Origin: an uncultured Alphaproteobacteria bacterium
GTDB lineage: Bacteria > Pseudomonadota > Alphaproteobacteria > Acetobacterales > Acetobacteraceae
Length of the DNA: 64,000 nt
Assembly: GCA_963719805.1 (NCBI GenBank)
Contig: CAVRDF010000004.1
Coordinates: 150,716 to 214,715 of the forward strand
Reading direction: 5' to 3'
The position numbers and the translations under genes were made by a program. The notes under the pieces are model-generated. The model did no database searches, was not told the origin of the DNA, and saw only the letters and a list, made by a program, of their open reading frames with translations. How positions within the stretch are numbered: the first letter of the stretch is position 1; each line of letters begins with the position of its first letter. This document shows, piece by piece, positions 15,539 to 41,552 of the stretch.

Positions 15539-16384
15539 ATGACCACCAAACTCGGCCGCCGATCGCTGGCCGGAGCCGCCGCCGTGCTGCCGGCCACAAC
15601 GTTCATCGGTTCCGCGCGGGCGCAGAGCACGAACGAGGCGACATTCGACCGCGTCCGCCGTACCAAGACACTGCGTATCGCCGCCTTGCCGGGTGAATTG
15701 CCGTATTTCCAAAAGGACCTCGCATCCGGCGAATGGAGCGGCGCGTGCATCGACATGGCCAAGGACATCGCCAAGGTGTTCGACGCCGAGCTCGCTTACG
15801 TCGAATCAACCTACGGTAATTCGGTGCTCGACCTGCAATCGAACAAGGTCGATCTCGCCTTCGCTCTCAACCCGACACCGCAACGCGCGCTATCCGTCGG
15901 CTTTGCCCATGCCGCTATCGTGCATCCCATTGGTGCGGTGGTGCGCAAGGGCCTCGATCCAACCACCTGGGACGACATCAACAAACCGGACATCCGTATC
16001 GTCTATGACATCGGTTCGCTGCATGAGGTCGTGGCAAAACGCTACTGTTCGAAGGCGCAGCTGACCGGCTTCAAGACCCGAGACGACTGCACACTGGCGA
16101 TGTCATCCGGCCGCGCCGATGTGCACGTGCTGGCAGCAATTCTTGGCCTGGCCGCACTGGGCAAGAACCCGCAGCTTGGCACCTATCATCTGCTGACTGG
16201 CCCGCTGGTCGCGCTGCCGAGCTGCCTCGCGATACAACGCGAGTCCGATACGCGCTTTCTGGACGTGATCAACGCCTGGATCGACTTCAACCGAGGTACC
16301 GCGCAGATCCGAGAATGGCTGCTGGCCGGTCTCGGCAAGTTCGGTGTCTCGCGCGATCAGGTCCCCGCGACACTGAGCTTCTGA
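15539..16384 (+). CDS. amino-acid ABC transporter substrate-binding protein (family 3)
   Basis: Signal MTTKLGRRSLAGAAAVLPATTFIGSARAQ, followed by an SBP_bac_3-like two-lobe sequence. Confidence 0.85.
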   Translation: MTTKLGRRSLAGAAAVLPATTFIGSARAQSTNEATFDRVRRTKTLRIAALPGELPYFQKDLASGEWSGACIDMAKDIAKVFDAELAYVESTYGNSVLDLQSNKVDLAFALNPTPQRALSVGFAHAAIVHPIGAVVRKGLDPTTWDDINKPDIRIVYDIGSLHEVVAKRYCSKAQLTGFKTRDDCTLAMSSGRADVHVLAAILGLAALGKNPQLGTYHLLTGPLVALPSCLAIQRESDTRFLDVINAWIDFNRGTAQIREWLLAGLGKFGVSRDQVPATLSF

Positions 16385-16433
16385 ACAGGCCAGGGAAGGG
16401 GACGCGACCGTCTTCTCCCCACGCAGCACCAGT

Positions 16434-17096
16434 ATGTATCAGTGGGACTTCGCCTTTCTGACACGCTACACGCCCCTGTTCGTCAAGGGCGTGATGGTGA
16501 CGCTTGCCTATACGGTTGCAACCATTCTGCTCGGCCTGTTCATTGGTCTTGTCTTGGGCCTCGGCCGGCTGTCGCGCTCCAAGCTGCTGAATATCCCGCT
16601 GATCGGCTTCATCGAAGCGTTCCGATGCACGCCGCTGCTGGTGCAAATCGTCTGGTTCTATTATGCACTGCCCGTACTGCTGAATATCCAGATCCCCGCG
16701 ACGACTGCGGCGGTATTGGTGCTGTCCTGCTACACTGGCGCATTTTATGCCGAGATCTTCCGTGGCGGCATCATCTCAATCGAAAGCGGCCAGTGGGATG
16801 CCGCGCGTGCTCTTGGCCTCCGGCGCTGGCCGATGATGCGAAAGGTGATCCTGCCGCAGGCGATCAAGCGAATGGTCCCGCCGTTCGTCAACCAATCGAT
16901 CACCCAGCTCAAGAACACGTCGCTGGTATCGACGATTGCGGTGCCGGACCTGCTCTACCAGGGCACCCTGATCACCGCTGACACGTATCGTCCGCTCGAG
17001 GTCTATACGGTTGTGGCACTGATCTATTTCGCCATGCTGTTTCCCAGCACGCTGCTCGCGCAGGCGTACGAACGGCATTTGGCGAAAGGCCGGTAG
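16434..17096 (+). CDS. amino-acid ABC transporter permease (His/Glu/Gln/Arg/opine family)
   Basis: The 220-aa product carries the EAA-loop region IESGQWDAARALGLRRWPMMRKVILPQA. No cognate ATPase gene is adjacent. Confidence 0.9.
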   Translation: MYQWDFAFLTRYTPLFVKGVMVTLAYTVATILLGLFIGLVLGLGRLSRSKLLNIPLIGFIEAFRCTPLLVQIVWFYYALPVLLNIQIPATTAAVLVLSCYTGAFYAEIFRGGIISIESGQWDAARALGLRRWPMMRKVILPQAIKRMVPPFVNQSITQLKNTSLVSTIAVPDLLYQGTLITADTYRPLEVYTVVALIYFAMLFPSTLLAQAYERHLAKGR

Positions 17097-17113
17097 ACGC
17101 CCCGGATCTGTTG

Positions 17114-18289
17114 CTATTTTCGCGGCAGCAGCTGCTCCGCCAGCGCCGCCCAGTAGGACGCGCCAACCGGAAGGATCTCGTCATTGAAGTCGTAGCGCGG
17201 GTGATGCACCATCGCGTCGGTCTTGGTGCGGCCGCCGCCCAGCATGATGTAGCTGCCTTGCTTCGCGTTCAACATGAACGAGAAGTCCTCACCGCCCATG
17301 GTGGGCTTCACCATCGGTACCACGCGTGCTTCTCCCGCGACAGATTCGGCCGCGCGGCGCGTCAGTGTCGTCGCTTCGGGATCGTTGATGGTTGCCGGAT
17401 AATCGCGGCTGAACACCACATTGGCCTTGGCACCGAAGCTCTCGGCGATGCCGGTCGCGAGGGTACGAACGCCATTTTCCAACTGATCCCCGACGTGCGG
17501 ATCGAACCAGCGTGCGGTGCCCAGCATGCGCACCGTCTCTGGGATCACGTTATAAGTGTGGCCGCCGTTGATGTGGCCGATGGTGACGACACCGCTTTCC
17601 AGCGGTTCGACGTTGCGCGCCACGATACTCTGCAACGCCGTTACGATGTGACTGGCGATCACGATGGGATCGATGCCGAAATGCGGCATCGCGCCGTGCG
17701 CGCCCTTGCCGGTGACGTCGATTTCGATATTCGCCACCGCCGCCATGATGGGCCCGTCGCGCCAGGCAAAAGTGCCGGCAGGCATCTGCGGCCAGTTGTG
17801 CAGGCCGAACACCATCTCCATCGGGCAGCGCTCGAACAGCCCGTCCTTCACCATGATGTCGCCGCCCGCGAAGTTCTCCTCGGCCGGCTGAAAGATCACA
17901 TAGACGGTGCCATCGAAGTTCCGTGTTTCGGCCAGGTACTTTGCAGCTCCGAGCAGCATGGTGGTGTGGCCGTCATGGCCGCACGCGTGCATCACACCTT
18001 GATTCTGCGATGCGTGCGGCAGTCCGGTCTCTTCAAGTATTGGCAAGGCATCCATGTCGGCGCGCAGCCCAATCGCGCGGGTGGAGCCGCTGCCGCCGCG
18101 GATCACGCCAACCACGCCGGTGGTTGCCATGCCGGTGATCACCTCATCGACGCCGAATTCCTTCAGCTTCTGCTGCACCACGCCGCTGGTTCGCGTCTCT
18201 TGCAAGGCCAGTTCGGGATGCATGTGCAGGTCGTGCCGCCACTCGGTCATCTCGCGATGGAACTCGGCTATCCGGTTGATGATCGGCAT
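17114..18289 (-). CDS. M20D-family amidohydrolase (N-acyl-amino-acid / hippurate hydrolase-like)
   Basis: Contains WRHDLHMHPEL...GLRADMDALP...MHACGHDGH...FQPAEE, the metal-binding motifs of the M20D family. Confidence 0.9.
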   Translation of the reverse strand: MPIINRIAEFHREMTEWRHDLHMHPELALQETRTSGVVQQKLKEFGVDEVITGMATTGVVGVIRGGSGSTRAIGLRADMDALPILEETGLPHASQNQGVMHACGHDGHTTMLLGAAKYLAETRNFDGTVYVIFQPAEENFAGGDIMVKDGLFERCPMEMVFGLHNWPQMPAGTFAWRDGPIMAAVANIEIDVTGKGAHGAMPHFGIDPIVIASHIVTALQSIVARNVEPLESGVVTIGHINGGHTYNVIPETVRMLGTARWFDPHVGDQLENGVRTLATGIAESFGAKANVVFSRDYPATINDPEATTLTRRAAESVAGEARVVPMVKPTMGGEDFSFMLNAKQGSYIMLGGGRTKTDAMVHHPRYDFNDEILPVGASYWAALAEQLLPRK

Positions 18290-18291
18290 TC

Positions 18292-19122
18292 TCAGCTCCT
18301 GTCAGCGAATGTGCACGCGAGACCTGCTTGCAACGTCATCGGCTCGAACCCGAGTGTCTCGATCATCGGGCGCACGTCGAAACTCTTGTCCTCCAGCAGC
18401 CGGCGGATTTCCGCCGGGCTGACGCGGGTGTACCGCAGAAGCGAGGCGAGCGCCATCAGCGGCCCGGCTGGGATGCTGATGAAGCGTGGGCGCCGCTGGT
18501 TGGTTGCCGCGGCGATGGCGCGGACGAATTCGGCGTAGGGCAGGGGGGTGGGGCCGGCAATCACCAGCGTGTGCGGCCCCTGCCATGCACGATTCAGCGC
18601 GGCACGAATGGCACGCGTCACATCGTCCTGGTGGATCGGTTGCACCAACGCGCGCCCGCCATTCGGCAGGGGCACAACGGGAAGCCGGCGCAGCAGCGCG
18701 GCGAGGCGCTGCACGTTGTCCTCACCTTGAGCGCCATAGATCATCGTGGGATGCAGCATCACGCCGGTCCGTCCGGACCCCAAGAACGCTGCTTCGCCGG
18801 CCAGCACGCCGTTGCCATGCACATCCGGCCATCGGGTGAACTTGCGCGTGCTGCCGAGGAACACCAGCGCCGCATCTTCCGGCGCTGCATCGATCACAGC
18901 GCCGGCATATCGGGCGTGCGCACAGCAGACGATGCGTCGTGCGTCGTGCAGTGCTTCGCGCAACCGCGCGGCGTCCGTCAGATCGGCGACGCACGCACCA
19001 GGCCATTTCGCCGCATCGCGCACCATCGGGACGATCGGCACACGATCGGTCTGCAGGGAATGTGCCAACGCGCGGCCGGTGCGGCCCGACGCGCCGATGA
19101 TATGGACTGCCTCGTTCGACAT
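18292..19122 (-). CDS. NAD(P)H-binding atypical SDR (NmrA/NDUFA9-like)
   Basis: HIIGASGRTGRAL Rossmann motif in a 276-aa product. Its stop lies 2 nt before the M20 start, so the two are probably co-transcribed. Confidence 0.75.
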   Translation of the reverse strand: MSNEAVHIIGASGRTGRALAHSLQTDRVPIVPMVRDAAKWPGACVADLTDAARLREALHDARRIVCCAHARYAGAVIDAAPEDAALVFLGSTRKFTRWPDVHGNGVLAGEAAFLGSGRTGVMLHPTMIYGAQGEDNVQRLAALLRRLPVVPLPNGGRALVQPIHQDDVTRAIRAALNRAWQGPHTLVIAGPTPLPYAEFVRAIAAATNQRRPRFISIPAGPLMALASLLRYTRVSPAEIRRLLEDKSFDVRPMIETLGFEPMTLQAGLACTFADRS

Positions 19123-19141
19123 GCGCCGGACGCTTCTCTAT

Positions 19142-19221
19142 CGTCATGGCCGGGCTGGTCCCGGCCATCCGAAGTGGCACACATGCCGCAACGGATGGCC
19201 GGGACAAGCCCGGCGATGACG
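19142..19221. repeat. inverted pair of REP-type palindromic elements
   Basis: CGTCATGGCCGGGCTGGTCCCGGCCATCCG (19142-19171) and its near-perfect reverse complement CGGATGGCCGGGACAAGCCCGGCGATGACG (19192-19221) are separated by 20 nt. Each copy is itself a hairpin (GGCCGGG..CCCGGCC). They generate the spurious MAGTSPAMT ORFs. Confidence 0.8.
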
Positions 19222-19249
19222 TGGTGAGGGGAGCGCAATTTGGCTGACG

Positions 19250-20881
19250 TTGATCCGATTACCGTCTCCGTCGTGCAGCACCGGCTGCACGCCATTGTCG
19301 AGGAGATGGGCGAGGCGATGCTCCGCACCTCGGTACTCGCAGATCCTCAACTCCAGCCGCGATTTTTCCACCGCGATCTGCGACCTGGATGGCCGGCTGA
19401 TAGCTCAGGCCGAGCACGTCCCGATCCATGTCGGCGCGCTGCCCTGGGCGGCGAAAGCAGTCACCGAATTCTTCCGTACCGACATCCATCCGGGCGACGT
19501 TTTCCTGCTGAACGACCCCTATCACGGCGGCAACCATATCCCCGACCTCACCGCCTTCGTCCCCATATTCAATGGCGACAGGCCGATGTTCTGGGCGATC
19601 AACCGTGCGCACCAGAGCGATATCGGTGGTTCGACGCACGGCGCCTACAATGCGGCGGCAACCGAAATCTGGCAGGAGGGCATCCGCGTCACCCCGCTGC
19701 GTCTCTACGACCGGGGCGAAGTGCGGCGCGACGTGCTGGAGATGCTGGTGACCAACGTGCGGCATCCGCACGACTTCCGCGGCGACCTGGCGGCGATGAT
19801 CGGATCGGCGCATGTCGGCCAGCGGCGCATGCTGGCACTGGCGGGGGAGTTCGGCTGGGACACCACGCTGGCGGCGATCGAGGCTGTGCTGGATGGCGCT
19901 GAGCGCCAGGCGCGCGCGGTGATCGCGACATGGAAGGATGGGGTGTACCACGGCGAGGCTTTCCTCGATGACGATGGCCATCGCTACACCGACATCCACA
20001 TCCGCGCCACGGTGACCAAGCGTGGCAGCGATCTGATTGTCGATCTGTCGGATTCGCATGAGCAGGTGGTGGGCTTCGTCAACTCGTCGTTTCCCAACAT
20101 GCGGTCGGCGGTGGTTGTGGCGCTCGCTTATCTGATCGATCCGCACACGCCGAAGAACGATGGCGCCTTCCGCCCGCTCACCGTGATCGCCAAGCCGGGC
20201 ACGGTGGTATGGGCGAACGAAGGCGCGCCGGTGACCCTGTGCACCAACCACTGCTCGCAGGAGATCATGCAGGCGATCATCCTGGCGCTCGCGCCGGCCT
20301 GTCCCGACCGCGCCATGGCAGGGTGGGGGCGGCGTTTCCGCATTGCCATCCAGGGCCGCGATCCGCGCACGGAGAAGCCATTCATCTGGCACATGTTCCA
20401 GGCGCGTCCTGGCGGGGGTGCGTCGCCGGTCGGCGATGGCTGGCCCGGCGGGGGAGAATGGCAGGCGGCCGGCGGCATCAAGTTCGGCAGCCTGGAAGTC
20501 ACCGAGGTGCGGTTCCCGCTGTTCTTCCGGCGGCATGAATTCCGTCCGGGGTCCGGCGGGGACGGCCAGTATCGCGGCGGCCCCGGCTGCGTGCTGGAAA
20601 TGGTGGCGGAGATCGACGAACCGGCGAAGGGCAATACCGCGGGCGACGGTGTGAAGTACGGGGCGTGCGGGATGCTTGGCGGCAATGACGGCTTGCCGCA
20701 TCGCTATGTGCTGCATTCGGAAGGCCGTCAGCAACGTGCGCTGAAGACCAAGGAAGTCGGCATTGAGATCCGGCCCGGGGATGTGTTCCGCATTGAATCA
20801 GGTGGCGGCGGCGGCTGGGGCGATGCCGCCAAGCGCGATCCCGCCGCACGCAAGCAGGATGAGATCAATGGTTTCGTTTGA
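19250..20881 (+). CDS. hydantoinase B/oxoprolinase family protein, N-terminus apparently frameshifted
   Basis: From about 19334 this frame reads YSQILNSSRDFSTAICDLDGRLIAQAEHVPIHVGALP..., which is HyuB-like to the end. The expected N-terminus (L)ADVDPITVSVVQHRLHAIVEEMGEAMLRTS lies in a different frame (TTG 19240 to 19332). The intact gene would therefore span 19240-20881. Confidence 0.85.
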   Translation: MIRLPSPSCSTGCTPLSRRWARRCSAPRYSQILNSSRDFSTAICDLDGRLIAQAEHVPIHVGALPWAAKAVTEFFRTDIHPGDVFLLNDPYHGGNHIPDLTAFVPIFNGDRPMFWAINRAHQSDIGGSTHGAYNAAATEIWQEGIRVTPLRLYDRGEVRRDVLEMLVTNVRHPHDFRGDLAAMIGSAHVGQRRMLALAGEFGWDTTLAAIEAVLDGAERQARAVIATWKDGVYHGEAFLDDDGHRYTDIHIRATVTKRGSDLIVDLSDSHEQVVGFVNSSFPNMRSAVVVALAYLIDPHTPKNDGAFRPLTVIAKPGTVVWANEGAPVTLCTNHCSQEIMQAIILALAPACPDRAMAGWGRRFRIAIQGRDPRTEKPFIWHMFQARPGGGASPVGDGWPGGGEWQAAGGIKFGSLEVTEVRFPLFFRRHEFRPGSGGDGQYRGGPGCVLEMVAEIDEPAKGNTAGDGVKYGACGMLGGNDGLPHRYVLHSEGRQQRALKTKEVGIEIRPGDVFRIESGGGGGWGDAAKRDPAARKQDEINGFV

Positions 20882-20911
20882 AAGCAATATTGTGAGTAGG
20901 GGTATCGCCAC

Positions 20912-22951
20912 GTGCTGAAGATCGGCATCGACGTCGGCGGCACGTTCACCGATCTGGTCGCGATCGATGACACCGGCCAGTCCACTCTGGCAAAGGTCGC
21001 CTCCACGCCGCAGGACCCCTCCATTGGTGTGATGGCCGGCCTGGACCGGCTGGCTGAAATTCTGCACCTGGCCCCCGCCGAACTGCTCGCACGCACCGAA
21101 CGCATCGTGCACGGCACGACGGTCGCCACCAACGCGCTGCTCGAGCATAAAGGCGCCAAGGTCGGCCTCCTCACCACCGAGGGCCATCGCGATGTCATCG
21201 AAATGCGCGAGGGTCTGAAAGACGATCGCTACAACCTGCGCATGCCGCCGCCGGTGCAACTGGTGCCGCGTGCGTTGCGGCTTGGTGTGATCGAACGCAT
21301 GCGCGCCGACGGCACGGTGGAAACACCGCTCGATCATGCATCGCTGGAAGCGTCGATCGACACGCTGAAGCGCAACGGCGTGGACGCGGTGGCGGTATGC
21401 TATTTGCATGCCTACCGCGATGCGCGGCATGAACGCGAGACCGCAGCCGGGTTGGCGAAGGCGATGCCCGATGCGTATGTGTCGCTGTCGTCTGACGTGT
21501 TTCCGCAGATCAAGGAGTTCGATCGCGTCTCCACAACGGTGGTGAACGCGTATGTCGGCCCGGCGTTGTCGCGCTATCTGCATCGGCTGGAGCAGCGTCT
21601 GGTGGAGGCCGGCTTCACCGGCCCCATTCTGATCATCCAATCGCATGGTGGCGTCGCGCCAATTGCCGAATCAGCGAGGCTTGCGGCCGGTGGCGTGCTG
21701 TCCGGTCCGGCAGGAGGCGTCGCCGGCAGCCGCTACGCGACGCAGTTGCTGAGCAGCGGCAACCTGATTCCGTTCGATATGGGCGGTACCAGCACCGACA
21801 TCTGCCTCATCGTCGATGGCGAGCCGTCTCTTGCAAGTGGCCGTGGCGTCGGGGGCCATCGATTGGCGCTGAACAGCCTTGATATAGTCAGCCTCGGCGC
21901 TGGCGGCGGCTCGATCGGACGCGTCGACACCGGCGGCATTTTGCACGTGGGGCCGGAGAGCGCCGGCGCGATACCCGGTCCCGCGTGCTATGGCCGCGGT
22001 GGCACCGAACCTACCGTGACCGATGCGAATCTGGTGCTGGGCTATCTCGATCCCTCGCATTTCCTCGGTGGTTCCGCGCAACTCGATGCTGCGGCAGCTG
22101 AACTGACACTGGATCGCCTGGCGGCCACGCTGAAGGTCGATCGCGTTACGGCGGCCGAGGGCGTGCATCGCGTGGTCAATACCAACATGGCCGAGGGTAT
22201 CCGGCTGGTGTCGGTGCGGCGCGGCGTCGATCCGCGCAAGTTCGCATTGCTGTCGTTCGGTGGCGCGGCAGGCCTGCATGTCACCGACGTTGCACGCCAG
22301 CTCGACCTCAACCGCGTGGTGGTTCCCCGTGTTGCCGCCGTGTTGTCGGCGTGGGGGATGCTCGCGACCGACCTGCGCTTCGAAGTTTCGCGTACGCATA
22401 TTGGCGACACGGCGCGTTTGGATGGTGCTGGCATCAAGCGCCTTTTCGCCGAAATGGAGCAGGAGGGGCTGGAGCGATTGCGTGCGTCGTTCGACGGTCC
22501 GGTCCGCGTCCAGCGGTCGGTGGAGATGCGTTACGGCGAGCAGATCTTCGAGATCACTGTGCCGCTGGATGGCATCGACTGGGATGTTGCCGATCCGCTG
22601 CCGCAAATCGTCGAGCGGTTCCATAATCGCCATGAGGAACTCTACACCTACGCGTTGCGTGAGCAGGGAGCGGTGCTGGTGAACGCGCGTGCCGCTGTAA
22701 TCGGTGTGCTGCCTGGCGTACCGCAGGAACCGGTGCGTCCCTCTGCATCCGCGGCTGCGCCACAAGGCGAGCGTCGCATTTGGCTGCGCGACTGGACCAG
22801 CGTGCCGGTGTTCGATTTCGATGCGCTGGCGCCAGGGCAGTCGATCGCCGGTCCGGCTATTGTCGAATCAGCGATGACGACTGTGCTGTTGCGCCCCGGC
22901 AATCGTGCAACCACCACGCCACATGGCTGGTTGGATATCGCCGTGGCATAA
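20912..22951 (+). CDS. hydantoinase A/oxoprolinase family protein
   Basis: GTG start. The N-terminus MLKIGIDVGGTFTDLVA is the ASKHA phosphate-1 motif. The 679-aa product is HyuA-like throughout. Confidence 0.9.
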   Translation: MLKIGIDVGGTFTDLVAIDDTGQSTLAKVASTPQDPSIGVMAGLDRLAEILHLAPAELLARTERIVHGTTVATNALLEHKGAKVGLLTTEGHRDVIEMREGLKDDRYNLRMPPPVQLVPRALRLGVIERMRADGTVETPLDHASLEASIDTLKRNGVDAVAVCYLHAYRDARHERETAAGLAKAMPDAYVSLSSDVFPQIKEFDRVSTTVVNAYVGPALSRYLHRLEQRLVEAGFTGPILIIQSHGGVAPIAESARLAAGGVLSGPAGGVAGSRYATQLLSSGNLIPFDMGGTSTDICLIVDGEPSLASGRGVGGHRLALNSLDIVSLGAGGGSIGRVDTGGILHVGPESAGAIPGPACYGRGGTEPTVTDANLVLGYLDPSHFLGGSAQLDAAAAELTLDRLAATLKVDRVTAAEGVHRVVNTNMAEGIRLVSVRRGVDPRKFALLSFGGAAGLHVTDVARQLDLNRVVVPRVAAVLSAWGMLATDLRFEVSRTHIGDTARLDGAGIKRLFAEMEQEGLERLRASFDGPVRVQRSVEMRYGEQIFEITVPLDGIDWDVADPLPQIVERFHNRHEELYTYALREQGAVLVNARAAVIGVLPGVPQEPVRPSASAAAPQGERRIWLRDWTSVPVFDFDALAPGQSIAGPAIVESAMTTVLLRPGNRATTTPHGWLDIAVA

Positions 22952-22956
22952 CGCGG

Positions 22957-25563
22957 CTATACTTGCACAAAGCTGTTGGCGTTGAACGTCCAAGGCGTTG
23001 TGCCATTCGTGGTGATGATGCCGACGAGTGTTCCACCGTGAGCGAACGACCCGTTGCTGGTGTAGAACAATTGGCCGGTATCGTGCTCGTAGGCGAAACC
23101 GCCCTTGCCACCATTGTTCAGCGTCGTTGACAGCAACTTCGCGAGGTTGGCGACATCGGTCAGGTCGCGGTTCAGAGTGAGCTGTGCGCCTCCTAGATCA
23201 TAAGCGTTGCCCGCAAGCGTGCTGCTACCGGTCGTGTCCAAGGCGATCCTATCACCTTTTGCGGCATTGAAGTTCGTCACGGTGCTGTATGCACCAAGGC
23301 TATGCTGATCAAACACGAACAGATCTGCCGCCGCATTGCCGGTGATGAAATTCATTCCCCCGCCGCCAATTACCATCGCCGCAGTCGAACCTGTCAGCAG
23401 GATGGTGTCGTTGCCGCTGCCGCCGATGACCGTCTCGGTGCCGGCCACCGAGACGCGGTTGGTGCCGTTTGCGAGCCGTAATGTGTCCTGGCCGGCTCCC
23501 AGGTCGACCGAAGCATTCACGGCACTACTGCCGTAGGTGATTGAATCATTGCCGGAACCGCCGACGAGCGTGGTGACATTACCGACCATGCCGGTGTTCG
23601 TGGTCGCTGCGAGCGTGAGCTTGTTGCTGCCGGCGCCGAGATCGACCGACATGCTTGTGGTAAGTGCGGTCGCCAGCGTGACTGTGTCATTGCCGGTGCC
23701 TCCAAGGATGACCTCGGTATTGGCGACCGTCGCCGAGTTCGTGCCGTTGGCTAAGGTGAGTGAGTCTGAACCTGCACCGAGGTCGATCGAAGCATTGGTG
23801 GCCGGCGTGGTCAGCAAGATTGTGTCGCTGCCACCGCCTCCAATGATGGTCTCGGTGTTGGCGACGGAAATGCGGTTGCTGGAGTTGAAAAGTCTTAAAG
23901 TGTCGTTGCCGGCGCCGAGATCCACCGAGCCATTCATCAGGCTGCTGCCGTAGCTGATACTGTCGCCCGCGGTGCTACCGATGAGCGTGGTGACATTGCT
24001 CACCGTGCCCGTATTGCCGCTTGCCTGGAGGATAAGCTTATTACTACCACCCCCGAGGTCGACTGACATCGCTGTGGTGAGTGCAGTCGCCAGCGTGATC
24101 GCGTCATCGCCGGTGCCCCCAAGGATGGTCTCGGTGTTGGCTACGGTCGCCGAGTTCGTGCCGCTGGCGAAGGTGAGCGCATCGGAACCTGCGCCAAGGT
24201 CGATAGAAGCATTGGTGACCAGTGTGGTCAGCACGATGGTGTCGCTGCCACTGCCGCCAATGATGGTCTCGGTATTCGCTACTGAAACCCGGTTGGTGAA
24301 GTTGGCGAGCCGCAAGGTGTCGCCGCCGGCGCCGAGATCGACGGAACCGTTCACCAGAATGCTGGCGTAGCTGATGCTATCGGCTCCGGCGCTGCCGACG
24401 AGCGTTGAGACATTACTCACCACGCCGGTGTTGCCGCTTGCCTGGAGGGTTAGCTTATTGCTGCCACCACCAAGGTCGATCGAGGTAGCTGTGGTGAGTG
24501 CGGTCGCCAGCGTGATCGTGTCATCGCCGGTCCCGCCAAGGACGACCTCGGTGTTGGCTACGGTCGCTGAGTTCGTGCCATTGGCGAAGGTAAGCTTGTC
24601 GAAGCCTGCACCCAGGTCGATCGAAGCATTGATGACGGGGGCACTCAGCACGATCGTATCGTTGCCTGTAGTGCCGGTGATGGTGTTGCTACCGGTGAAT
24701 TGGCCGATATCGACCTCGACCACGCCCGACGAAAGTGATGACAGCGGGATCAGCGAAGGTTGATAGCAGCCCCAGGGATTGCCTAGCTGCACCATTGGTG
24801 CGCCATTCACCATGGTCACGCCTTCGAACATGTAGGCGTGGTTGTTATACAGGCCGTAGGGCAGCGTACCGGAGGAGTAAGTGTCCATCACGATCAGGTC
24901 GCCTGCCGCGACAAAGCTCTGCAACAGTCCGAGCGTGAGCGAAGCTGACGACATGTAGGTGGCTGATTGGCCAACGAGCTCCTTCATGGCAATCATGGGA
25001 TTGCCGCCGTTGGCGATGTAGTTGTAGCCACCGTTAAGGGTTGCCACTGCCTTTTCCAGCACCTGGACCCAGATTTCCTTTTGCCCGTTCACTACATCCT
25101 GGGTCGCACCGTTGTTGACGACATTGCCAGGGAATGTGTTGTCGATCGTCACCGTGGTCGCTTTAAACGACGTCGTGCTGTATGTTGGCAGTTGGCCCGA
25201 AGCAGACAGATACAATGTTACGGTCTCAGTGCCATTCGCATTCACCTGGATCATGTTGGTGATGTAGCTGGGGTGCCAGAGCGCGATCTCGCCGATAGAT
25301 GACAGCAGGAAGCAATCGCCGATTTGTCCCTGGTGGATGTCGTTGACGCTGATAAGCGAACTATCGCCAAACTCCTGCAAATAAAGCGCGGTCGAACCTG
25401 CCTTCGGTGCCATGGCGGTGGTTACGGTTGGCAGCAAATTGCTCCACGCGTCCGACACACCATTGTAGCCGTTGTCATCGAGAGGGGAGTGCAAGCCTTT
25501 GGCGAGGATGGTGGCGGCTGACGTCATGGAAGCCTCGCTGCGTTCTGCGAAGACTGGCATCAC
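22957..25563 (-). CDS. calpain-type (peptidase C2-like) cysteine protease fused to an RTX-like repeat array; probable T1SS substrate
   Basis: Triad motifs are QGQIGDCFLLSS (Cys84, codon 25312-25314), NNHAYMF (His242, 24838-24840) and LGNPWG (Asn262, 24778-24780). Nine 46-47-aa modules follow, each with a GGxGxDxUx nonapeptide. The C-terminal tail of about 120 aa is non-repetitive, and there is no N-terminal signal peptide. Confidence 0.8.
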   Translation of the reverse strand: MMPVFAERSEASMTSAATILAKGLHSPLDDNGYNGVSDAWSNLLPTVTTAMAPKAGSTALYLQEFGDSSLISVNDIHQGQIGDCFLLSSIGEIALWHPSYITNMIQVNANGTETVTLYLSASGQLPTYSTTSFKATTVTIDNTFPGNVVNNGATQDVVNGQKEIWVQVLEKAVATLNGGYNYIANGGNPMIAMKELVGQSATYMSSASLTLGLLQSFVAAGDLIVMDTYSSGTLPYGLYNNHAYMFEGVTMVNGAPMVQLGNPWGCYQPSLIPLSSLSSGVVEVDIGQFTGSNTITGTTGNDTIVLSAPVINASIDLGAGFDKLTFANGTNSATVANTEVVLGGTGDDTITLATALTTATSIDLGGGSNKLTLQASGNTGVVSNVSTLVGSAGADSISYASILVNGSVDLGAGGDTLRLANFTNRVSVANTETIIGGSGSDTIVLTTLVTNASIDLGAGSDALTFASGTNSATVANTETILGGTGDDAITLATALTTAMSVDLGGGSNKLILQASGNTGTVSNVTTLIGSTAGDSISYGSSLMNGSVDLGAGNDTLRLFNSSNRISVANTETIIGGGGSDTILLTTPATNASIDLGAGSDSLTLANGTNSATVANTEVILGGTGNDTVTLATALTTSMSVDLGAGSNKLTLAATTNTGMVGNVTTLVGGSGNDSITYGSSAVNASVDLGAGQDTLRLANGTNRVSVAGTETVIGGSGNDTILLTGSTAAMVIGGGGMNFITGNAAADLFVFDQHSLGAYSTVTNFNAAKGDRIALDTTGSSTLAGNAYDLGGAQLTLNRDLTDVANLAKLLSTTLNNGGKGGFAYEHDTGQLFYTSNGSFAHGGTLVGIITTNGTTPWTFNANSFVQV
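23329..24678. repeat. intragenic tandem repeat of about 417 bp (139 codons), about 3.2 copies, each made of three 46-47-codon sub-repeats
   Basis: The protein units beginning NASIDLGAG(F/S)D... recur three times with only scattered substitutions. The opposite-strand ORFs at 23537, 23972 and 24374 also mirror each other. Confidence 0.85.
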
Positions 25564-25653
25564 CGGTCGTTCGCCAGATCATTCGCTTGCGAGTCTTTCG
25601 CCACGGGATGGTCGAGTGGCCCGCGCTTGTAGGGACCGCGCAGCAGATCTACA

Positions 25654-25683
25654 GAACAAACCCTGACAAACAGTGAACAAACC
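25654..25683. promoter_or_regulatory. three helically phased ACAAAC hexamers (candidate regulator site upstream of the calpain-like gene)
   Basis: GAACAAACC sits at 25654-25662 and again at 25675-25683, with GACAAAC at 25665-25671. The hexamer starts are 10 and 11 nt apart. The site is an AT-rich patch in the 432-bp intergenic region, 91-120 bp upstream of the ATG at 25563. Confidence 0.3.
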
Positions 25684-25995
25684 ATGGCCTTCAAGCCAGG
25701 ATTCAATGTGGCTGCATCGGCGTATGGGTTCGCACGCCGACGTGTACCTCCCTGCAGTCGTGTTCAAACCGGAGATGCCCGGGTCCCTTGCCACCTGCCT
25801 TTGCCACTTCGCTGCAGCGCTCGAACCTGTGTGCGGACCGTCGATGTCTTCGACCGCGCCAGCTTCGCGCTCGGCTCGCCCTGCGACTTTGCCGCCGCAA
25901 TGCTGCGTTTCAGACGGCCTCTAACAACGTAACTTGCTTGCGGCAGTTCGTGAAACTCGACATGCTTTTGCCCAACAATCTTCAGGGGGCATATC

Positions 25996-27534
25996 ATGAG
26001 GCGGCGGACATTCCTGGCCGGAGCAGCCGGTGTTGCGGCGGCATCGTTGCCGCGCATTTCGATCGATGCACCAGGCAATGCGCGCGTGCTGCGTTTTGTG
26101 CCGCAGGCGAATCTGACAGTGCTCGATCCGATCATCACCACCGCGGCGGTGACCATCAACCATGGCTGGATGGTCTACGACACGCTGTTCGGCATCAATG
26201 CTGCGCAGCAGGCGAAACCGCAGACCTATCTCATCAAGCTGCGCGATGGGCTGAAGTTCCATGACGGCGAGCCGGTGTTGGCGCGCGACTGCGCGGGAAG
26301 CCTGGCGCGCTGGGCGGCGCGCGATACGTTTGGTGGGACCGCGGCAAAATCGGTGGATAGTTGGGGCTTCGCCGACGACAAGACGATCAAGATCACGCTG
26401 AAACGGCCGTTTCCGCTGCTGATAGATGCAATTGCCGTTGGCACATCGTTCATTATGCCCGAGCGGCTGACCAAGACCGATCCATTCAGGCCAGTACCTG
26501 AAATCATCGGTTCTGGTCCGTTCCGCTTCATCAAAGAGGATTTCGTCGCCGGCAGTGGTGCTGCGTGGGAAAAGTTCGATGGCTACGTCCCACGGCAGGA
26601 AGCGCCGGAATGGACCTCGGGCGGCAAGGTAGCGAATTTCCCACGCATCGAGTGGAAGGTGATTCCCGACGCGGCCACTGCGTCCGCCGCGCTGCAAACC
26701 GGTGAGGTGGACTGGTATGAGCAAGCACAGGAAGATCTGGTGCCACTGCTCCGTCGCAATAGCGACATCGCCATCGCGCCGTCGAATCCGCTTGGCTATA
26801 TCGGTTGCATGCGGTTCAACTCGATCCAGCCGCCGTTCAACGATGCACGCCTGCGCCGCGCCATCCTGACCGCCGTCAATCAGGAAGACTACATGCGCGC
26901 GATCATGGGCAGCGACGATGCCGCGTGGCAGGTGTGCCGTTCGCAATATCCGTGCGGGACGATGTACGGCACGCAGGTCGATCTGCCGGTGCAGAAGGGC
27001 GACATCGCGACGGCGAAGAAGTTGCTCCAGGAAGCCGGCTACAGCGGCCAGAAGGCGGTGATCATCAATCCGACAGACTTTCCCACCATCGGGCCGTTCG
27101 GCGACCTGACCGCCGATTTGTTCCGCAAGCTCGGTATCAACGTCGACCTGCAGGACACCGACTGGGGTACGGTCGTGCAGCGGCGCACGAGCAAGGAGCC
27201 GGTGGAGAAGGGCGGATGGTCAGTATATCACACCTGGGCCACAGGTTCGTTCATCCTCAATCCTGTCGTGACGACACCATTCCGCGGTCAGGGTGCCGCG
27301 GGTTGGTTCGGTTGGTACGACAATCCGAAGATCGAGCAGATGACGCAGGAATGGCTGGATGCCAAGACGGATGATGATCGCAAGAAGATCGCCGCCGCGA
27401 TACAGCTCGAGAACTACCAGCAGGCGCCGACGATTACGCTAGGCCAGTTCCAGATTCCCACCGCTTACCGGAAGAGCCTGACCGGGCGAGTGGAATACAC
27501 CGGGCCGCTTTTCTGGAACGTGAAGCGGACCTGA
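25996..27534 (+). CDS. ABC transporter substrate-binding protein, family 5 (peptide/opine/nickel type), orphan
   Basis: Tat-type signal MRRRTFLAGAAGVAAASL, followed by an SBP_bac_5-like 512-aa sequence. No permease or ATPase gene is adjacent. Confidence 0.85.
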   Translation: MRRRTFLAGAAGVAAASLPRISIDAPGNARVLRFVPQANLTVLDPIITTAAVTINHGWMVYDTLFGINAAQQAKPQTYLIKLRDGLKFHDGEPVLARDCAGSLARWAARDTFGGTAAKSVDSWGFADDKTIKITLKRPFPLLIDAIAVGTSFIMPERLTKTDPFRPVPEIIGSGPFRFIKEDFVAGSGAAWEKFDGYVPRQEAPEWTSGGKVANFPRIEWKVIPDAATASAALQTGEVDWYEQAQEDLVPLLRRNSDIAIAPSNPLGYIGCMRFNSIQPPFNDARLRRAILTAVNQEDYMRAIMGSDDAAWQVCRSQYPCGTMYGTQVDLPVQKGDIATAKKLLQEAGYSGQKAVIINPTDFPTIGPFGDLTADLFRKLGINVDLQDTDWGTVVQRRTSKEPVEKGGWSVYHTWATGSFILNPVVTTPFRGQGAAGWFGWYDNPKIEQMTQEWLDAKTDDDRKKIAAAIQLENYQQAPTITLGQFQIPTAYRKSLTGRVEYTGPLFWNVKRT

Positions 27535-27697
27535 CGAGCCAAGGATTTTCTCGCTCGCGGTTACGGCAAGGCGCGCAAAGGTTCCGGCGGTGGATCGCGC
27601 GGCACTGGTATCGGCTGCGGCGGTTCCTCCACTGGGACAGGCGCATCCGGATCGGGTTCATCCGCCGGACTACCAGGCGGCTTCGGTGGATCCGACA

Positions 27698-29926
27698 TCA
27701 TGCCGCAGGTTCTTCCACAGGCGTCACCGCAGCCGGCGTCTCTGCCACCTGGCGCAATGCCTCGCGCGCACGGGTGAGAGCAACTGACGGTGCGCTGTCT
27801 GGCTGTAGAGCGAACAGCACCAGCGATCGGGCTGTCACCATGTACTCGTCGCCGCTGCGCACCTTGGGCTCATCGTCGAGACCAGGCACATTCGCATCCA
27901 ACAAGCGGCGCCACGTGCTGCCGCCCACCACCTCGGGCAGCTTGAACTTCACGACGTCATGGTGCGCATTCAGTACCAGCAGCACCGTCGCATCCATCGC
28001 TGGCCGTTTGATACCGGTGGCCTGCGCTCGTCCATCGATCAGCATGCCAAAGCAGCGTGCATTCGGGTCCTGCCACTGCTCGTGGCCCATCTCAGTGGCC
28101 GACGGCGTGAGCCAGCTCACGTCTTTCACATCCAGATCCGCATTATACTCGCCGGTCAGGAAGCGTGAGCGCCGCAGGACAGGGAATGCGCGCCGCAAGG
28201 CAATCACACGCCGCACGAAATCGATCAGCTCGGCACCACTTTCGCTGATGTTCCAATCAACCCAGCTGATCTCATTGTCCTGCGCGTAGGCGTTGTTGTT
28301 ACCGTGCTGCGTGCGGCCGAATTCGTCGCCGGCTAATAACATAGGGGTGCCCTGCGACAGCAGCAGAGTCGCCAACAGGTTCCGCATCTGCCGGCAGCGC
28401 AGCCCCTTGATCTCCGTATCGTCGGTCGGTCCCTCAGCGCCGTGGTTCCACGACAGGTTGTCCGAGTGGCCGTCCTGGCTGTTCTCGCCGTTCGCTTCGT
28501 TGTGCTTCTCATTGTAGGAAACCAGGTCATGCAGCGTGAAGCCGTCATGCGCGGTGATGAAGTTGACGCTGGACCAGGGTTTGCGGCCGCGTCGCGCGAA
28601 TGCATCGGACGATGCCGCGAGCCGCGTCGCCAATTCCGGCAGCTTCCCTTCGTCGCCTTTCCAGAAGCTTCGCACGGTGTCGCGGAATTTGTCGTTCCAT
28701 TCGGCCCAACCTGGCGCGAAGCCGCCGACCTGATAGCCGCCCGGCCCGATGTCCCATGGTTCAGCGATCAGCTTCACCTGCGACAGCACCGGATCCTGCT
28801 GGCAGCTTTGCAGGAAACCGTGTCCCGTATCGAAGCCATGGTGCTCGCGCGCCAGGATGGTGCCCAGGTCGAAGCGAAAGCCGTCGACGTGCATCTCGGT
28901 CACCCAGTAGCGCAGCAAGTCGGTGACCATCTGCAGCACACTCGGGTGCGATAGGTTCAGCGTGTTCCCGGTGCCGGTGTCATTGATGTAATAGCGCGGA
29001 TTATCAGGCAGCAGCCGATAATATGATGCATTGTCGATGCCGCGGAACGACAACGTCGGACCACGCTCGTTGCCTTCGGCTGTATGGTTGTACACCACAT
29101 CGAGGATCACCTCGAGGCCAGCATCATGCAGCCGCGCCACCATCTCCTTGAATTCGGAAAACACGAACGAGGGCACAGCGGAATAGCGTGGATCTGGCGC
29201 GAAGAACCCTATGCTGTTGTAGCCCCAGTAGTTGGTCAGCCCCTTTTCCAGCAGATGCCGATCATTCACGAATGCGTGGATCGGCAGCAGCTCTACCGAA
29301 GTGACGCCAAGCGAACGGATATAGTCGACCACTTCCTTGCGGCCCAAACCAGAGAATGTGCCACGTAGCCGTTCCGGCACAGCTGGATGCAGCTTGGTAT
29401 ATCCGCGCACGTGCGTCTCGTAGATGATGGTCCGGTCCCATGGCACCTCGGGACGTCGTTCCCGACCCCAGGTGAAGGCGGGATCGATCACACGGCATTT
29501 CGGCATATAGCGCGCGGTGTCGCGCCGATCAAAGCTTAGATCCTCATTCTTCGAGCCAATGGAGTAGCCGAACAGCGCGTTGTCCCAGCGCAAGGCGCCG
29601 ACAAACGCCTTGGCATAAGGGTCCAATACCAATTTGTTGGGATTGAAGCGGTGGCCATTGCGCGGATCGTACGGGCCGTGCACCCGATAGCCATAAATCG
29701 TTCCGGGACGGGCGTCCGGCAGGTATCCGTGCCAGACTTCATTGGTGTATTCGGGCAGTTCGATGCGTTCCAGTTCGTTGCGTCCGGCATCATCGAACAG
29801 GCAAAGTTCGACCTTGGTGGCGTTGGCGGAGAACAAGGCGAAGTTTACGCCCAGACCGTCCCAAGTCGCCCCGCGTGGATTTGGTGAGCCCTCGCTGAGA
29901 CGGGACCGATTGGTGGCGGCTGACAT
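27698..29926 (-). CDS. glgX: glycogen debranching enzyme
   Basis: Contains GATWDGLGVNFALFS, GVTSVELLPIH, VDGFRFDLG, AEPWD and FITAHDGFTLHD (GH13 regions). The ATG at 29926 is preceded by GAGGAGAA. Confidence 0.9.
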   Translation of the reverse strand: MSAATNRSRLSEGSPNPRGATWDGLGVNFALFSANATKVELCLFDDAGRNELERIELPEYTNEVWHGYLPDARPGTIYGYRVHGPYDPRNGHRFNPNKLVLDPYAKAFVGALRWDNALFGYSIGSKNEDLSFDRRDTARYMPKCRVIDPAFTWGRERRPEVPWDRTIIYETHVRGYTKLHPAVPERLRGTFSGLGRKEVVDYIRSLGVTSVELLPIHAFVNDRHLLEKGLTNYWGYNSIGFFAPDPRYSAVPSFVFSEFKEMVARLHDAGLEVILDVVYNHTAEGNERGPTLSFRGIDNASYYRLLPDNPRYYINDTGTGNTLNLSHPSVLQMVTDLLRYWVTEMHVDGFRFDLGTILAREHHGFDTGHGFLQSCQQDPVLSQVKLIAEPWDIGPGGYQVGGFAPGWAEWNDKFRDTVRSFWKGDEGKLPELATRLAASSDAFARRGRKPWSSVNFITAHDGFTLHDLVSYNEKHNEANGENSQDGHSDNLSWNHGAEGPTDDTEIKGLRCRQMRNLLATLLLSQGTPMLLAGDEFGRTQHGNNNAYAQDNEISWVDWNISESGAELIDFVRRVIALRRAFPVLRRSRFLTGEYNADLDVKDVSWLTPSATEMGHEQWQDPNARCFGMLIDGRAQATGIKRPAMDATVLLVLNAHHDVVKFKLPEVVGGSTWRRLLDANVPGLDDEPKVRSGDEYMVTARSLVLFALQPDSAPSVALTRAREALRQVAETPAAVTPVEEPAA

Positions 29927-32243: not shown

Positions 32244-33476
32244 ATGTTGACACGCCGGGCTGCCAGCCAGCTCATGGTAACGACTGCCGCGGCCGCCGCA
32301 CTTGGTGTCGGTTCCGCCCATGCGGCGCAGACCATCAAGGTCGGGCTGGATCTTTCGTTGACTGGCGCCGATGCGGAATCCGCAGCGCGCATCAAGAACG
32401 GCGCGTTGATGGCGTTCGACGAGGTCAACGCGAAGAACGAATTAGGCGGCAACAAAATCGAGGTTGTCGTCTATGACGACGGCACGGCGACGGCCGGGCA
32501 GTATGATCCCGCGCAGGCCGCGACCAACGCCCGCAAGATGGTGTCTGACAAGGAGGTCGTGGCGGCGATCGGGCCGATGATGAGCGGCGCGGGCAAGGCG
32601 ATGGCGCCGATCCTGAGCCAGGGCAACCTGGCAACGATCACGCCGAGCTCGACTAACCCCGACATTACTGCCCCAAAGTTTGCCGCACAGTACAAGCCGG
32701 CCGGCAAGGCGATCTATTTCCGCACCGTCACGACGGATGCCTTCCAGGGACCCAACCTGGCGAACTATTTCGCCGAGGTATTGAAGGTGAAGACGGCATA
32801 TATTCTGGACGATTCCGGTGCATATGGCGTTGGCATCGCGGATTCATTCCAGAAGCGTGCCGAGGAAAAGGGCATAAAGGTGCTCGGTCGCGATCGTCTT
32901 GATCCGAAGTCGGCCGACTACACAACGATCCTGACCAAAATCAAGGCATTGAACCCAGACGCCCTATACTATGGCGGTGTCGGTCAGGCCGGCGTGAAGC
33001 TGGCCAAGCAGTCGTACGACATCGTGCCAAAGATGATAAAGGGCGGCGGCGACGGGATGTACTCGACCGAGATGCTGTCGGCAGTCGGTTTCCCGGCGGC
33101 CGCGGGCTGGTACGCGACCATCGCTTCGCCGCACGTCACCGGCGACAAGGTGGCCGATGCCTGGATGAAGGCATACAGCTCAAAGTTCAACATGACTCCA
33201 GACGATTACTCGATCACCGCTTATGACGCGGGACTGGTGATCGCCGATGCAATCAAGCGCCTGGTGGACGATAAGAAGCCGATCAATCGGGACTCAGTGC
33301 GCGACTACCTCCAGACTTCGAACGTAAAGACCATGCAGGGCCCGGTCTCGTTCGACGACAACGGCGATCTGAAGGACCGCACGATCAGCATTTTTCAGAT
33401 CACCAAGGATGCGAACTACGCCGCTGATGACATGGTGCATCAGTTCAAGTACATCGGTGTGGCACCGCAGAGCTAA
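32244..33476 (+). CDS. branched-chain amino-acid ABC transporter substrate-binding protein (LivK-like), copy 1
   Basis: Signal peptide, then IKVGLDLSLTGADAE...GQYDPAQAATNARKMV, a type-I periplasmic binding fold sequence. Confidence 0.9.
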   Translation: MLTRRAASQLMVTTAAAAALGVGSAHAAQTIKVGLDLSLTGADAESAARIKNGALMAFDEVNAKNELGGNKIEVVVYDDGTATAGQYDPAQAATNARKMVSDKEVVAAIGPMMSGAGKAMAPILSQGNLATITPSSTNPDITAPKFAAQYKPAGKAIYFRTVTTDAFQGPNLANYFAEVLKVKTAYILDDSGAYGVGIADSFQKRAEEKGIKVLGRDRLDPKSADYTTILTKIKALNPDALYYGGVGQAGVKLAKQSYDIVPKMIKGGGDGMYSTEMLSAVGFPAAAGWYATIASPHVTGDKVADAWMKAYSSKFNMTPDDYSITAYDAGLVIADAIKRLVDDKKPINRDSVRDYLQTSNVKTMQGPVSFDDNGDLKDRTISIFQITKDANYAADDMVHQFKYIGVAPQS

Positions 33477-33481
33477 GAGAC

Positions 33482-33510
33482 GGAAGGCCGGGGCATCCCC
33501 CCGGCCTTCC
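33482..33510 (+). terminator. GC-rich hairpin after LivK-like copy 1
   Basis: GGAAGGCCGGGG-catcc-CCCCGGCCTTCC forms a 12-bp perfect stem 6 nt after the stop. There is no U-tract. Confidence 0.5.
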
Positions 33511-33583
33511 GAGTATCTGAGGGCAAAACAATCGGTCGTGGCGTGCAAATTGCATAGTACGCCGGCAACAACGGGGAACGCAC

Positions 33584-34819: not shown

Positions 34820-34830
34820 CCCGAGAAGGC

Positions 34831-34861
34831 GGGGTCCGGAAGCGTGGCCATTCCGGACCCC
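34831..34861 (+). terminator. hairpin after LivK-like copy 2
   Basis: GGGGTCCGG-N13-CCGGACCCC forms a 9-bp stem 12 nt after the stop. Confidence 0.4.
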
Positions 34862-35015
34862 AGGCTGCTCAGGCGCACCGTTTGCCTTCCGGCCCGGCAG
34901 CCGATACTAACCGGCCCAACAAAGCGAACAGGGGGCGACGCGTGCTGATCGAGCGCAAGCTGCGCGACAGGCCGTGCCGCTTTATCAACGCTATGAGCGG
35001 AGACGCATCGCAACC

Positions 35016-35945: not shown

Positions 35946-35958
35946 GGGAGCGACGCGA

Positions 35959-38001: not shown

Positions 38002-38028
38002 CGCTTTGCGGCCCGCTGGGAGGCGGTG

Positions 38029-38757
38029 ATGGCTGTCCTGTTGGAATTCAAGAACATCGATACCTACTACGGCGACCTGCACGTGCTGAAGCAGGTGAAC
38101 TACTCGATCGGTGAAGGCGAAATCGTCTCGCTGCTGGGTGGCAACGCTTCCGGCAAATCGACCACCATGAAGACCATCATGGGCGTGGTGCGTCCGACGC
38201 GTGGCTCGGTGATCTATCAGGGCCAGGCGATCGAGCGGATGGAGACCGCGGAACGCGTGCGCCGCGGCATCGCGCCGGTGTTGGAGGCGCGTCGGCTGTT
38301 CCCGCGTATGACGGTGTTCGAGAACCTGGAGATGGGCGCGTATCTGCGCAAGCGTGGTCCTGAATTCGACCAGGATCTGGAGCGTGTGTATACGCTGTTC
38401 CCGCGGGTCAAGGAACGCGCCACCCAGATCGCCGGCACGCTGTCAGGGGGCGAGCAGCAGATGGTGGCCATGGGGCGTGCGTTGATGGCGCGGCCAAAGC
38501 TGCTGTGCATGGACGAACCGTCGATGGGACTGGCGCCGATATTCGTCGAGCAGGTGTTCGACATCATCCAGGAGATCAACCGCCAGGGCACCACCATCTT
38601 CATGGTGGAGCAGAACGCGAATATGGCACTGCAGATCGCGCACCGCGCTTACGTGTTGCAGACCGGGCAGGTGGTGCTGTCCGGCGCTGCCGCTGAATTG
38701 CGGCAGAATCCGCTGATCCGCGAAGCGTATCTCGGCGAGATGCAGGTAACCGTGTAG
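38029..38757 (+). CDS. livF: branched-chain amino-acid ABC transporter ATPase
   Basis: Walker [10 protein letters not shown], signature [15 protein letters not shown], Walker B LCMDEPS. GGGAGG lies 5 nt upstream of the ATG. A GTG at 38026 is the alternative start. Confidence 0.9.
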
Positions 38758-41546: not shown

Positions 41547-41552
41547 CCCAAG

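Follow-up and report, generated by a model that had tools for sequence, protein, structure and literature searches.

A predicted calpain-type cysteine protease with a C-terminal RTX-type beta-roll in Acetobacteraceae

Calpains are known from textbooks as cytoplasmic, EF-hand-regulated proteases of eukaryotes. Serralysins, among them AprA and PrtC (M10B), are acidic zinc metalloproteases that carry no signal peptide and combine an N-terminal protease with a C-terminal calcium beta-roll, a repeats-in-toxin (RTX) cap and an uncleaved C-terminal region; their genes usually adjoin those of their exporter and an inhibitor. Here we describe a gene that appears to join these two designs. It lies in a 64,000-nucleotide stretch (hereafter the window, whose own coordinates are used throughout) of contig CAVRDF010000004.1, positions 150,716–214,715, from an uncultured alphaproteobacterium of the Acetobacteraceae (assembly GCA_963719805.1). 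Its likely coding sequence occupies 22957–25527 on the minus strand and specifies 856 aa from Met13; residues are numbered from the GTG at the start of the whole open reading frame (ORF; 22957–25563, minus strand, 868 aa).

Bacterial calpains were considered rare in 2015, when they were recorded in 11 of 815 proteobacterial species, with Glr4140 of Gloeobacter violaceus as the single HemolysinCabind fusion and the only homologue named with such repeats (Rawlings 2015, PMC4631099). Glr4140 has eight HemolysinCabind repeats and a calpain domain, and an extracellular function was proposed for it (PMC4631099). Its repeats are N-terminal to the protease, an arrangement unsuited to a C-terminal type I signal, whereas those of the present protein are C-terminal, the order found in proven type I substrates; it also comes from a different phylum, and the repeat type may differ, as the two are likened by description and not by sequence. 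The sole characterised bacterial C2 peptidase, Tpr of Porphyromonas gingivalis, is inhibited by EDTA and by thiol reagents (PMC4631099). It originates from the Bacteroidota and is likewise set beside our protein by its description, not its sequence. The C80 peptidase of MARTX toxins, a member of the unrelated clan CD, is an autoprocessing domain inside the toxin that inositol hexakisphosphate switches on once it is in the host cytosol. It resembles the present case as a cysteine protease within a type I-exported RTX protein (PMC3034196) and differs in not having the calpain fold. The literature searched yielded no paper joining bacterial calpains with beta-rolls or type I secretion, and Glr4140 was the only calpain–RTX fusion found in it. 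On that basis a calpain with a C-terminal RTX tail is undescribed in print, yet such proteins are plentiful and automatically annotated in databases.

We consider it moderately probable that the gene encodes a type I-secreted, acidic cysteine exoprotease of about 856 aa in a soil-dwelling member of the Acetobacteraceae, a calpain-fold counterpart of serralysin that would be folded and activated in extracellular calcium.

A minimal calpain-type head and an RTX-type tail

The minimal calpain-type (peptidase C2) head comprises residues 59–290 (24694–25389, minus strand), as delimited from PF00648, PDB matches, the AlphaFold model, Foldseek and the boundary of stand-alone homologues. Its motifs GDCFLLSS, HAY and NPWG contain Cys84 (codon 25312–25314), His242 (24838–24840) and Asn262 (24778–24780), all on the minus strand, with a Cys–His spacing of 158 residues and a His–Asn spacing of 20; motifs, residues and spacings are exactly those given in the initial annotation, which had been made from the letters alone. 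The Peptidase_C2 profile (PF00648), a check proposed at that stage, covers residues 71–266 (E-value 1.3e-19; 70.8 bits against a cut-off of 23.8). A PDB sequence search with the head returned calpains only (calpains 9, 8, 3, 1 and 5, and m-calpain), with the triad, the oxyanion Gln of DIxQG and the NPW motif all aligned; Cys84 pairs with the catalytic Cys of calpain-9, and His242 and Asn262 are likewise placed by the calpain alignment. Across 65 aligned homologues the Cys, His and Asn of the triad and Asp75 are invariant, and Gln78 and Glu163 are conserved in at least 90%. The oxyanion Gln78 and the calcium site-1 residue Asp75 lie just upstream of Cys84 in the protein.

An AlphaFold model of the head, built from the same 65-homologue alignment, has a mean predicted local distance difference test score (pLDDT) of 84, with the core above 90. 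In it a helix (model residues 69–84) carries the Cys at its N-terminal end, and the His and Asn are located on a hairpin of consecutive strands, the former at the start of strand 231–240 and the latter following strand 243–249. In a Foldseek comparison of this model with the PDB, the top 40 matches are calpain protease cores (best E-value 1.8e-12), with a TMq of up to 0.63 despite disorder in 51 of the 288 modelled residues, a root-mean-square deviation of 3.2–3.7 Å for the best ones and an identity of 16–20%; staphopains and cathepsins rank far below. Profile, PDB alignment and fold comparison support the calpain-family assignment of the initial annotation, with the head as a member of family C2 (clan CA) and its predicted triad intact.

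The head is shorter than the core of solved calpains. The PF00648 match extends over profile positions 45–244 of 297, less than a complete PC1 plus PC2 core; sequence similarity to solved calpains stops at NPWG, the head ends about 28 residues past the catalytic Asn, near residue 290, and the last ~50 profile positions are absent. In the AlphaFold model one short helix and one strand (...SGVVEVDIGQF) close the fold. Rat calpain-2 has two calcium sites, formed by Ile89/Gly91/Asp96/Glu175 and by Glu292/Asp299/Gln319/Glu323 (PMC4631099). Asp75 aligns with calpain-2 Asp96, nine residues before the catalytic Cys, and Glu163 with the calpain Glu found 70 residues after it; by this alignment both acidic ligands of site 1 are kept in the head. 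Site 2 appears to be absent, because the positions of Gln319 and Glu323 fall past the end of the head and that of Glu292 is occupied by Gln268. Compared with the cores of eukaryotic calpains (CAPN1, 2, 3, 8 and 9), the protein thus has the same fold and catalytic triad, along with the NPW motif, the oxyanion Gln and the two acidic site-1 ligands; it differs in having no C2-like or penta-EF-hand (PEF) domains and apparently no site 2, and in being probably extracellular.

The VEVDIG motif that ends the head contains a nearly invariant Asp285 (EVDI, residues 283–286, 24706–24717). Most stand-alone heads likewise terminate in this motif with its Asp, usually together with the preceding Glu. Its role may be structural, or it may stand in as a metal site for the calpain site 2 that the head appears to lack.

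The head leads directly into an RTX-like beta-roll (residues 291–729; 23377–24693, minus strand) composed of a half-module followed by nine modules of 46/47 aa. The [IV]DLG anchors of the nine modules fall between residues 315 and 686 at spacings of 47, 46, 46, 47, 46, 46, 47 and 46, and the modules recur in the order A-B-C three times, giving three 139-aa super-repeats; Tandem Repeats Finder reports a 417-bp period (3.1 copies, 78% matches, score 1463) at 23393–24666. The nine modules of 46–47 aa proposed initially are therefore borne out by anchoring and by repeat detection. The accompanying claim of one nonapeptide per module needs amendment, as every module carries one canonical GGxGxDxUx, as stated, and also a degenerate LGAGxDxLx that had been overlooked, nine of each in the tail. 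The HemolysinCabind profile (PF00353), another check suggested at the outset, scores 43 bits against a cut-off of 23 (E-value 4e-11) in 7 matched stretches. Four further Pfam matches in the repeats (DUF3181, PalB_C, AFP_2 and Adeno_PVIII), with no or marginal matched stretches, were dismissed as compositional.

AlphaFold modelling of residues 285–868 gave a pLDDT of 93.3 and an all-beta structure with five short strands per module; on this prediction successive modules would not be equivalent in a two-sided 18-residue roll. Among PDB structures, Foldseek matched the tail to CyaA RTX, RsaA, MpAFP (a calcium-dependent antifreeze beta-helix), AprA and other serralysins, an RTX lipase and the AlgE4 R-module. 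The TM-scores are low (at most 0.26), as expected, because long solenoids differ in curvature. All of these best matches are calcium beta-roll proteins and known substrates of type I secretion. The roll is closed by a terminal RTX cap, GGGGMNFITGNAAADLFVFD (residues 730–752; 23308–23376, minus strand), which aligns with the AlgE4 R-module (E-value 0.005) when the final 175 residues are used as a profile. Repeat motifs and structural model support a predicted RTX-type calcium beta-roll.

Beyond the cap lies a non-repeat C-terminal domain of ~116 aa (residues 753–868; 22960–23307, minus strand) ending ...PWTFNANSFVQV, close to the ~120 aa first estimated; presumably this domain acts as an uncleaved signal for type I secretion or as a cap. 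Of the 20 database proteins listed first, 19 share its conserved extreme C-terminus, as do 12 intact GTDB loci, and the end ...PW.F.A.SF.QV is retained in orthologues of 48–76% identity.

The overall layout is thus that of the serralysins, with AprA and its relatives also matching the tail structurally, while the catalytic type differs, serralysins being zinc metalloproteases and the present head having a Cys-His-Asn calpain fold. Serralysin repeats are contiguous nonapeptides, in contrast to the 46/47-aa modules with two calcium-type turns each, and exporter or inhibitor genes of the serralysin kind are not linked to this gene. Neither M10 nor PF08548 (Peptidase_M10_C) matched the protein even at an E-value of 10. 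Similar long-period RTX-like repeats occur in the SMc04171 family of calcium-binding repeat proteins (NF046115), which matched in four stretches (E-value 1.3e-13); membership was rejected at 51 bits against a cut-off of 625, and nothing indicates a calpain head in that family.

Export and competing explanations

Hydropathy scanning of the protein detected no segment of signal-peptide or membrane-helix grade (maximum KD19 1.58, inside the head), in keeping with the initial statement that an N-terminal signal peptide is missing. The protein is acidic (isoelectric point 4.1) and has only 2 Cys. Type I secretion is made likely by the acidity, the conserved extreme C-terminus and the negative result for a signal peptide; in line with the initial suggestion, the protein has the general features of type I substrates (predicted RTX roll, isoelectric point, N-terminus).

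As a secreted exoprotease, the protein would be exported C-terminus first through a type I secretion system (T1SS) encoded elsewhere in the genome. At low cytoplasmic calcium the tail would stay unfolded, keeping the enzyme harmless and secretion-competent without an inhibitor; outside the cell the roll would bind calcium, fold and ratchet the chain out, and the head would fold last and then turn active. Export by a calcium ratchet is established for RTX proteins generally (PMC3034196; PMC8486122). The task of the enzyme would be extracellular proteolysis, with peptide supply or the trimming of surface or matrix proteins as our best guess. This guess is prompted by the repeated position of the gene beside genes for peptide uptake and amino-acid catabolism, and neighbouring genes in several genomes hint weakly at a nutritional role.

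Several observations weigh against this account. Of 55 ORFs selected in the window, 51 were analysed with Pfam (four short ones were left out), and no gene for a T1SS ATP-binding cassette (ABC) protein or membrane fusion protein (MFP; HlyD) was found among them; neither kind of gene was found in the 10 kb around 84 related loci. The nutritional synteny holds in a minority of loci only, the other orthologous position being beside cupredoxin, metallophosphatase and extracytoplasmic function (ECF) sigma genes. The core is truncated, and from a triad alone peptidase activity cannot be assumed. Moreover, secretion, calcium binding and proteolysis are all functions predicted here from sequence and structural models.

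With respect to the exporter, a motif screen found ABC-like ORFs of 500–800 aa in 8 of the 84 loci; four of these (with L025 and L002 being the same contig), typed by NCBIfam, were MsbA-, CydD-, PotA- and Uup-like, none over any T1SS cut-off. The four other RTX-tail proteins of the lineage that were checked also had no T1SS neighbour; an unlinked exporter therefore seems to be the rule in this lineage and weighs little either way. Type I substrates with unlinked exporters are known. When four genes per side were clustered over 75 loci, no neighbour cluster occurred in more than 7, which argues against a dedicated inhibitor, immunity protein or regulator. The initial statement that T1SS, inhibitor and regulator genes are not linked therefore stands, both for the 51 window ORFs and for the related loci. 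One candidate T1SS component was considered and rejected: at 3–1852 the window holds the C-terminal end of a resistance–nodulation–division (RND) efflux pump and then, at 353–1852, its only TolC-superfamily gene, an outer-membrane factor of NodT type that follows the pump.

The main rival to a released exoenzyme assigns a surface role to the long, length-variable roll, such that the exported protein would be a retained or matrix-bound enzyme or stalk with the roll as a rigid spacer or anchor on lipopolysaccharide, exopolysaccharide or S-layer. Orthologues carry from about 4 to 19 GGxGxD motifs (loci L006, L008, L011 and L017 among them), from which we conclude that the array grows and shrinks between species, a spacer-like behaviour. 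The tail also has one of its best structural matches in RsaA, which is an O-antigen-bound S-layer protein, albeit at TM-scores of 0.21–0.25. Tails of the same type with other heads lie inside exopolysaccharide or exosortase clusters, and the window itself contains polysaccharide clusters; the protease gene, however, is outside such clusters in every locus examined, and no anchoring domain was recognised in the protein. We regard surface retention as unlikely, yet as an explanation to be taken seriously. It seems highly improbable, by comparison, that the product is no working secreted protease, whether intracellular or carrying its truncated calpain domain as an inactive binding module. Such a view could draw on the exporter searches in the window and near related loci, on the shortened core, on stand-alone heads without a recognisable export signal and on the catalytically inactive calpain homologues known in eukaryotes (PMC4631099), but it has to face a triad and oxyanion Gln that are invariant or nearly so in 65 diverse homologues, and a large acidic RTX tail with a conserved C-terminus, for which there is no known intracellular role.

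Calcium might also act on the head through the tail, as the initial annotation proposed. The protein would then be a calcium-gated extracellular calpain in which the roll replaces the PEF domains and site 2 and switches the active site allosterically. In favour, the head lacks the end of the PC2 subdomain and apparently calcium site 2, the roll starts immediately after its last strand, RTX folding is generally calcium-dependent (PMC3034196), and EDTA inhibits Tpr, the sole characterised bacterial calpain (PMC4631099). Against such gating, heads of 50–67% identity occur as free-standing proteins of ~290 aa ending exactly at the head/roll junction, others are joined to He_PIG, Big or DUF4214 tails with no RTX-type repeat (HemolysinCabind) recorded, and the head retains its own site-1 ligands. 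The existence of free-standing and non-RTX-tailed heads indicates that the head is an autonomous fold for whose folding the roll is not needed, and we hold allosteric gating to be quite doubtful. Similarly low credence is given to a broader proposal, in which an Acetobacteraceae 'mini-calpain' cassette (a core of ~230 residues with one calcium site) would occur both as a free protein with no signal and joined to at least five types of extracellular tail, the RTX form being gated by its calcium-folded roll. If true, a roll-gated mini-calpain would represent a second, independent calcium control of a calpain and the first type I-exported calpain.

Returning to the preferred interpretation as a type I-secreted exoprotease, this protein and at least 12 intact orthologues in species-representative genomes place a minimal calpain core ahead of a serralysin-style tail. 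If secreted and active, they would add a cysteine-protease class to the known type I exoenzymes, would offer structural biology and inhibitor studies a compact bacterial calpain core (~230 ordered residues), and would allow site 1 alone and the beta-roll to be tested directly against each other for calcium dependence. Calpain homologues, called rare in Proteobacteria in 2015, have expanded in soil Acetobacteraceae. Should the protein be an ordinary exoprotease, the gain would be better annotation.

Relatives, distribution and inheritance

About 30 database proteins of 48–68% identity have the head, modules and C-terminus in common and differ mainly in module number; NCBI names one protein of this architecture 'C2 family cysteine protease'. 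A GTDB scan with one genome per species found the head encoded at 220 loci. Among the best 80 of these, all records with a taxon below class fall in the Acetobacteraceae/Rhodospirillales group (Rhodopila, Lichenicoccus, Paracraurococcus and metagenome-assembled genomes (MAGs)); 12 retain the RTX tail intact, conserved end included, about 8 others bear RTX repeats but are cut or interrupted, and in about 50 the head stands alone, measures roughly 280–300 aa and terminates in ...VEVDIGH precisely at the head/roll junction. The word 'orphan' in the initial annotation is therefore apt as regards a linked partner gene and inapt as regards the protein, which has ~30 relatives of the same architecture and 220 head loci; the distribution check proposed there shows that the architecture is not a one-off and recurs across Acetobacteraceae.

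The free-standing heads (L026–L084, for example L030, L037 and L058; P0119–P0218) measure ~275–300 aa with a variable acidic N-terminus of ~60 aa, and no Sec-type signal was found in them. This free-standing 'mini-calpain' is the commonest form of the head in Acetobacteraceae. The head also occurs on He_PIG/Big, Calx-beta and DUF4214 tails, and a search of 1.84 billion representative proteins returned 3784 with an E-value of at most 1e-3 and 116 at or below 1e-30. The MAG B12_bin-0097 holds a stand-alone head (L072) and, at L016, another copy with a tail that continues past the end of the locus, suggesting that the head cassette has expanded paralogously within genomes.

Two genomic positions recur among orthologues. 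In the window and in loci L001 and L004 the protease gene is flanked by hyuAB and an SBP_bac_5 gene, and hyuA or hyuB adjoins 7 of the 80 GTDB loci; the second position is the one beside cupredoxin, metallophosphatase and ECF sigma genes. Inheritance looks vertical because orthologues hold these recurring positions. In L004 (12578–16299), whose protease P0103 belongs to the same 90%-identity cluster, gene calling breaks hyuA and hyuB into several pieces, probably through assembly frameshifts rather than biology.

The gene had also been described as compositionally foreign, a view that does not hold. At 58.6% its G+C content lies below the 62.7% of the window, with a minimum over the head (54.6%), figures that, with the tight convergent spacing to hyuA, might suggest recent horizontal acquisition between housekeeping genes. 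G+C at third codon positions (GC3), however, is 0.73 against 0.76 ± 0.05 for 40 other window genes (z = −0.55), and a codon adaptation index (CAI)-like measure is 0.61 against 0.66 ± 0.06 in other genes, within one standard deviation. The low total G+C reflects a deficit at codon positions 1 and 2, in a gene whose protein is rich in Thr, Gly, Ser and Asn. Orthologues of 60% identity reside in the same hyuAB/SBP_bac_5 neighbourhood, the locus being syntenic in relatives, and no mobile-element genes were seen nearby; we find a recent transfer scarcely credible.

Plasmid sequences were searched as well. By tblastn the calpain head was found on none; the repeats alone matched, at ~30% identity, in Azospirillum, Microvirga, Niveispirillum and Sinorhizobium, in proteins labelled 'calcium-binding protein' or 'Ig-like domain-containing protein' where annotated. 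A megablast of 20000–28000 against plasmids gave one 43-bp match of chance level only.

Gene boundaries and the rest of the window

The start at Met13 is likelier than the GTG because a 100% identical database protein of 856 aa (P0001) begins there and GAGG lies 5 nt upstream of its ATG. From this Met to the head extends a variable N-terminal leader (residues 13–58; 25390–25527, minus strand), probably disordered (pLDDT below 50 for model residues 1–43) and without a Sec-type signal; the homologue alignment shows no conservation ahead of LYLQE.

The protease gene converges with hyuA, whose stop lies at 22951, leaving 5 bp between the two, a gap that the ORF coordinates confirm as first reported. 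Upstream of hyuA is hyuB, and on the other side of the protease gene a divergent gene encodes SBP_bac_5, a family-5 solute-binding protein. A promoter and terminator scan of 22700–26100 gave no more signals than shuffled sequence, and Rfam applied to the whole window had no match at gathering score. The 432-bp gap upstream of the protease gene contains an 83-aa ORF (25673–25924) that is not called as a gene in the near-identical locus L004. It is one of five ORFs with coding-like GC3 and no Pfam match, the others being 5580–7202, 51875–52855, 47124–47846 and 4747–5529.

Genes for peptide and amino-acid uptake and catabolism are unusually dense in the window (1892–3583, 15539–22951, 25996–27534, 32244–38757, 44034–46878 and 52886–54469). 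They include a gamma-glutamyltranspeptidase, an M20 peptidase, hydantoinase A/B and two family-5 peptide-binding proteins, together with Dpp/Opp-type permeases and ATPase and a Liv-type ABC system. At 7862–10087, 39855–43841 and 54608–62932 the window holds a Wzz-type chain-length/kinase gene and two clusters of polysaccharide genes; one cluster contains WecG, GT2, Bac_transf and GtrA, and the other a sulfotransferase, two Acetyltransf_6, two GT2 and an epimerase. On the related contigs L085, L087 and L089, other proteins with the same RTX-type tail are encoded inside exopolysaccharide or exosortase clusters.

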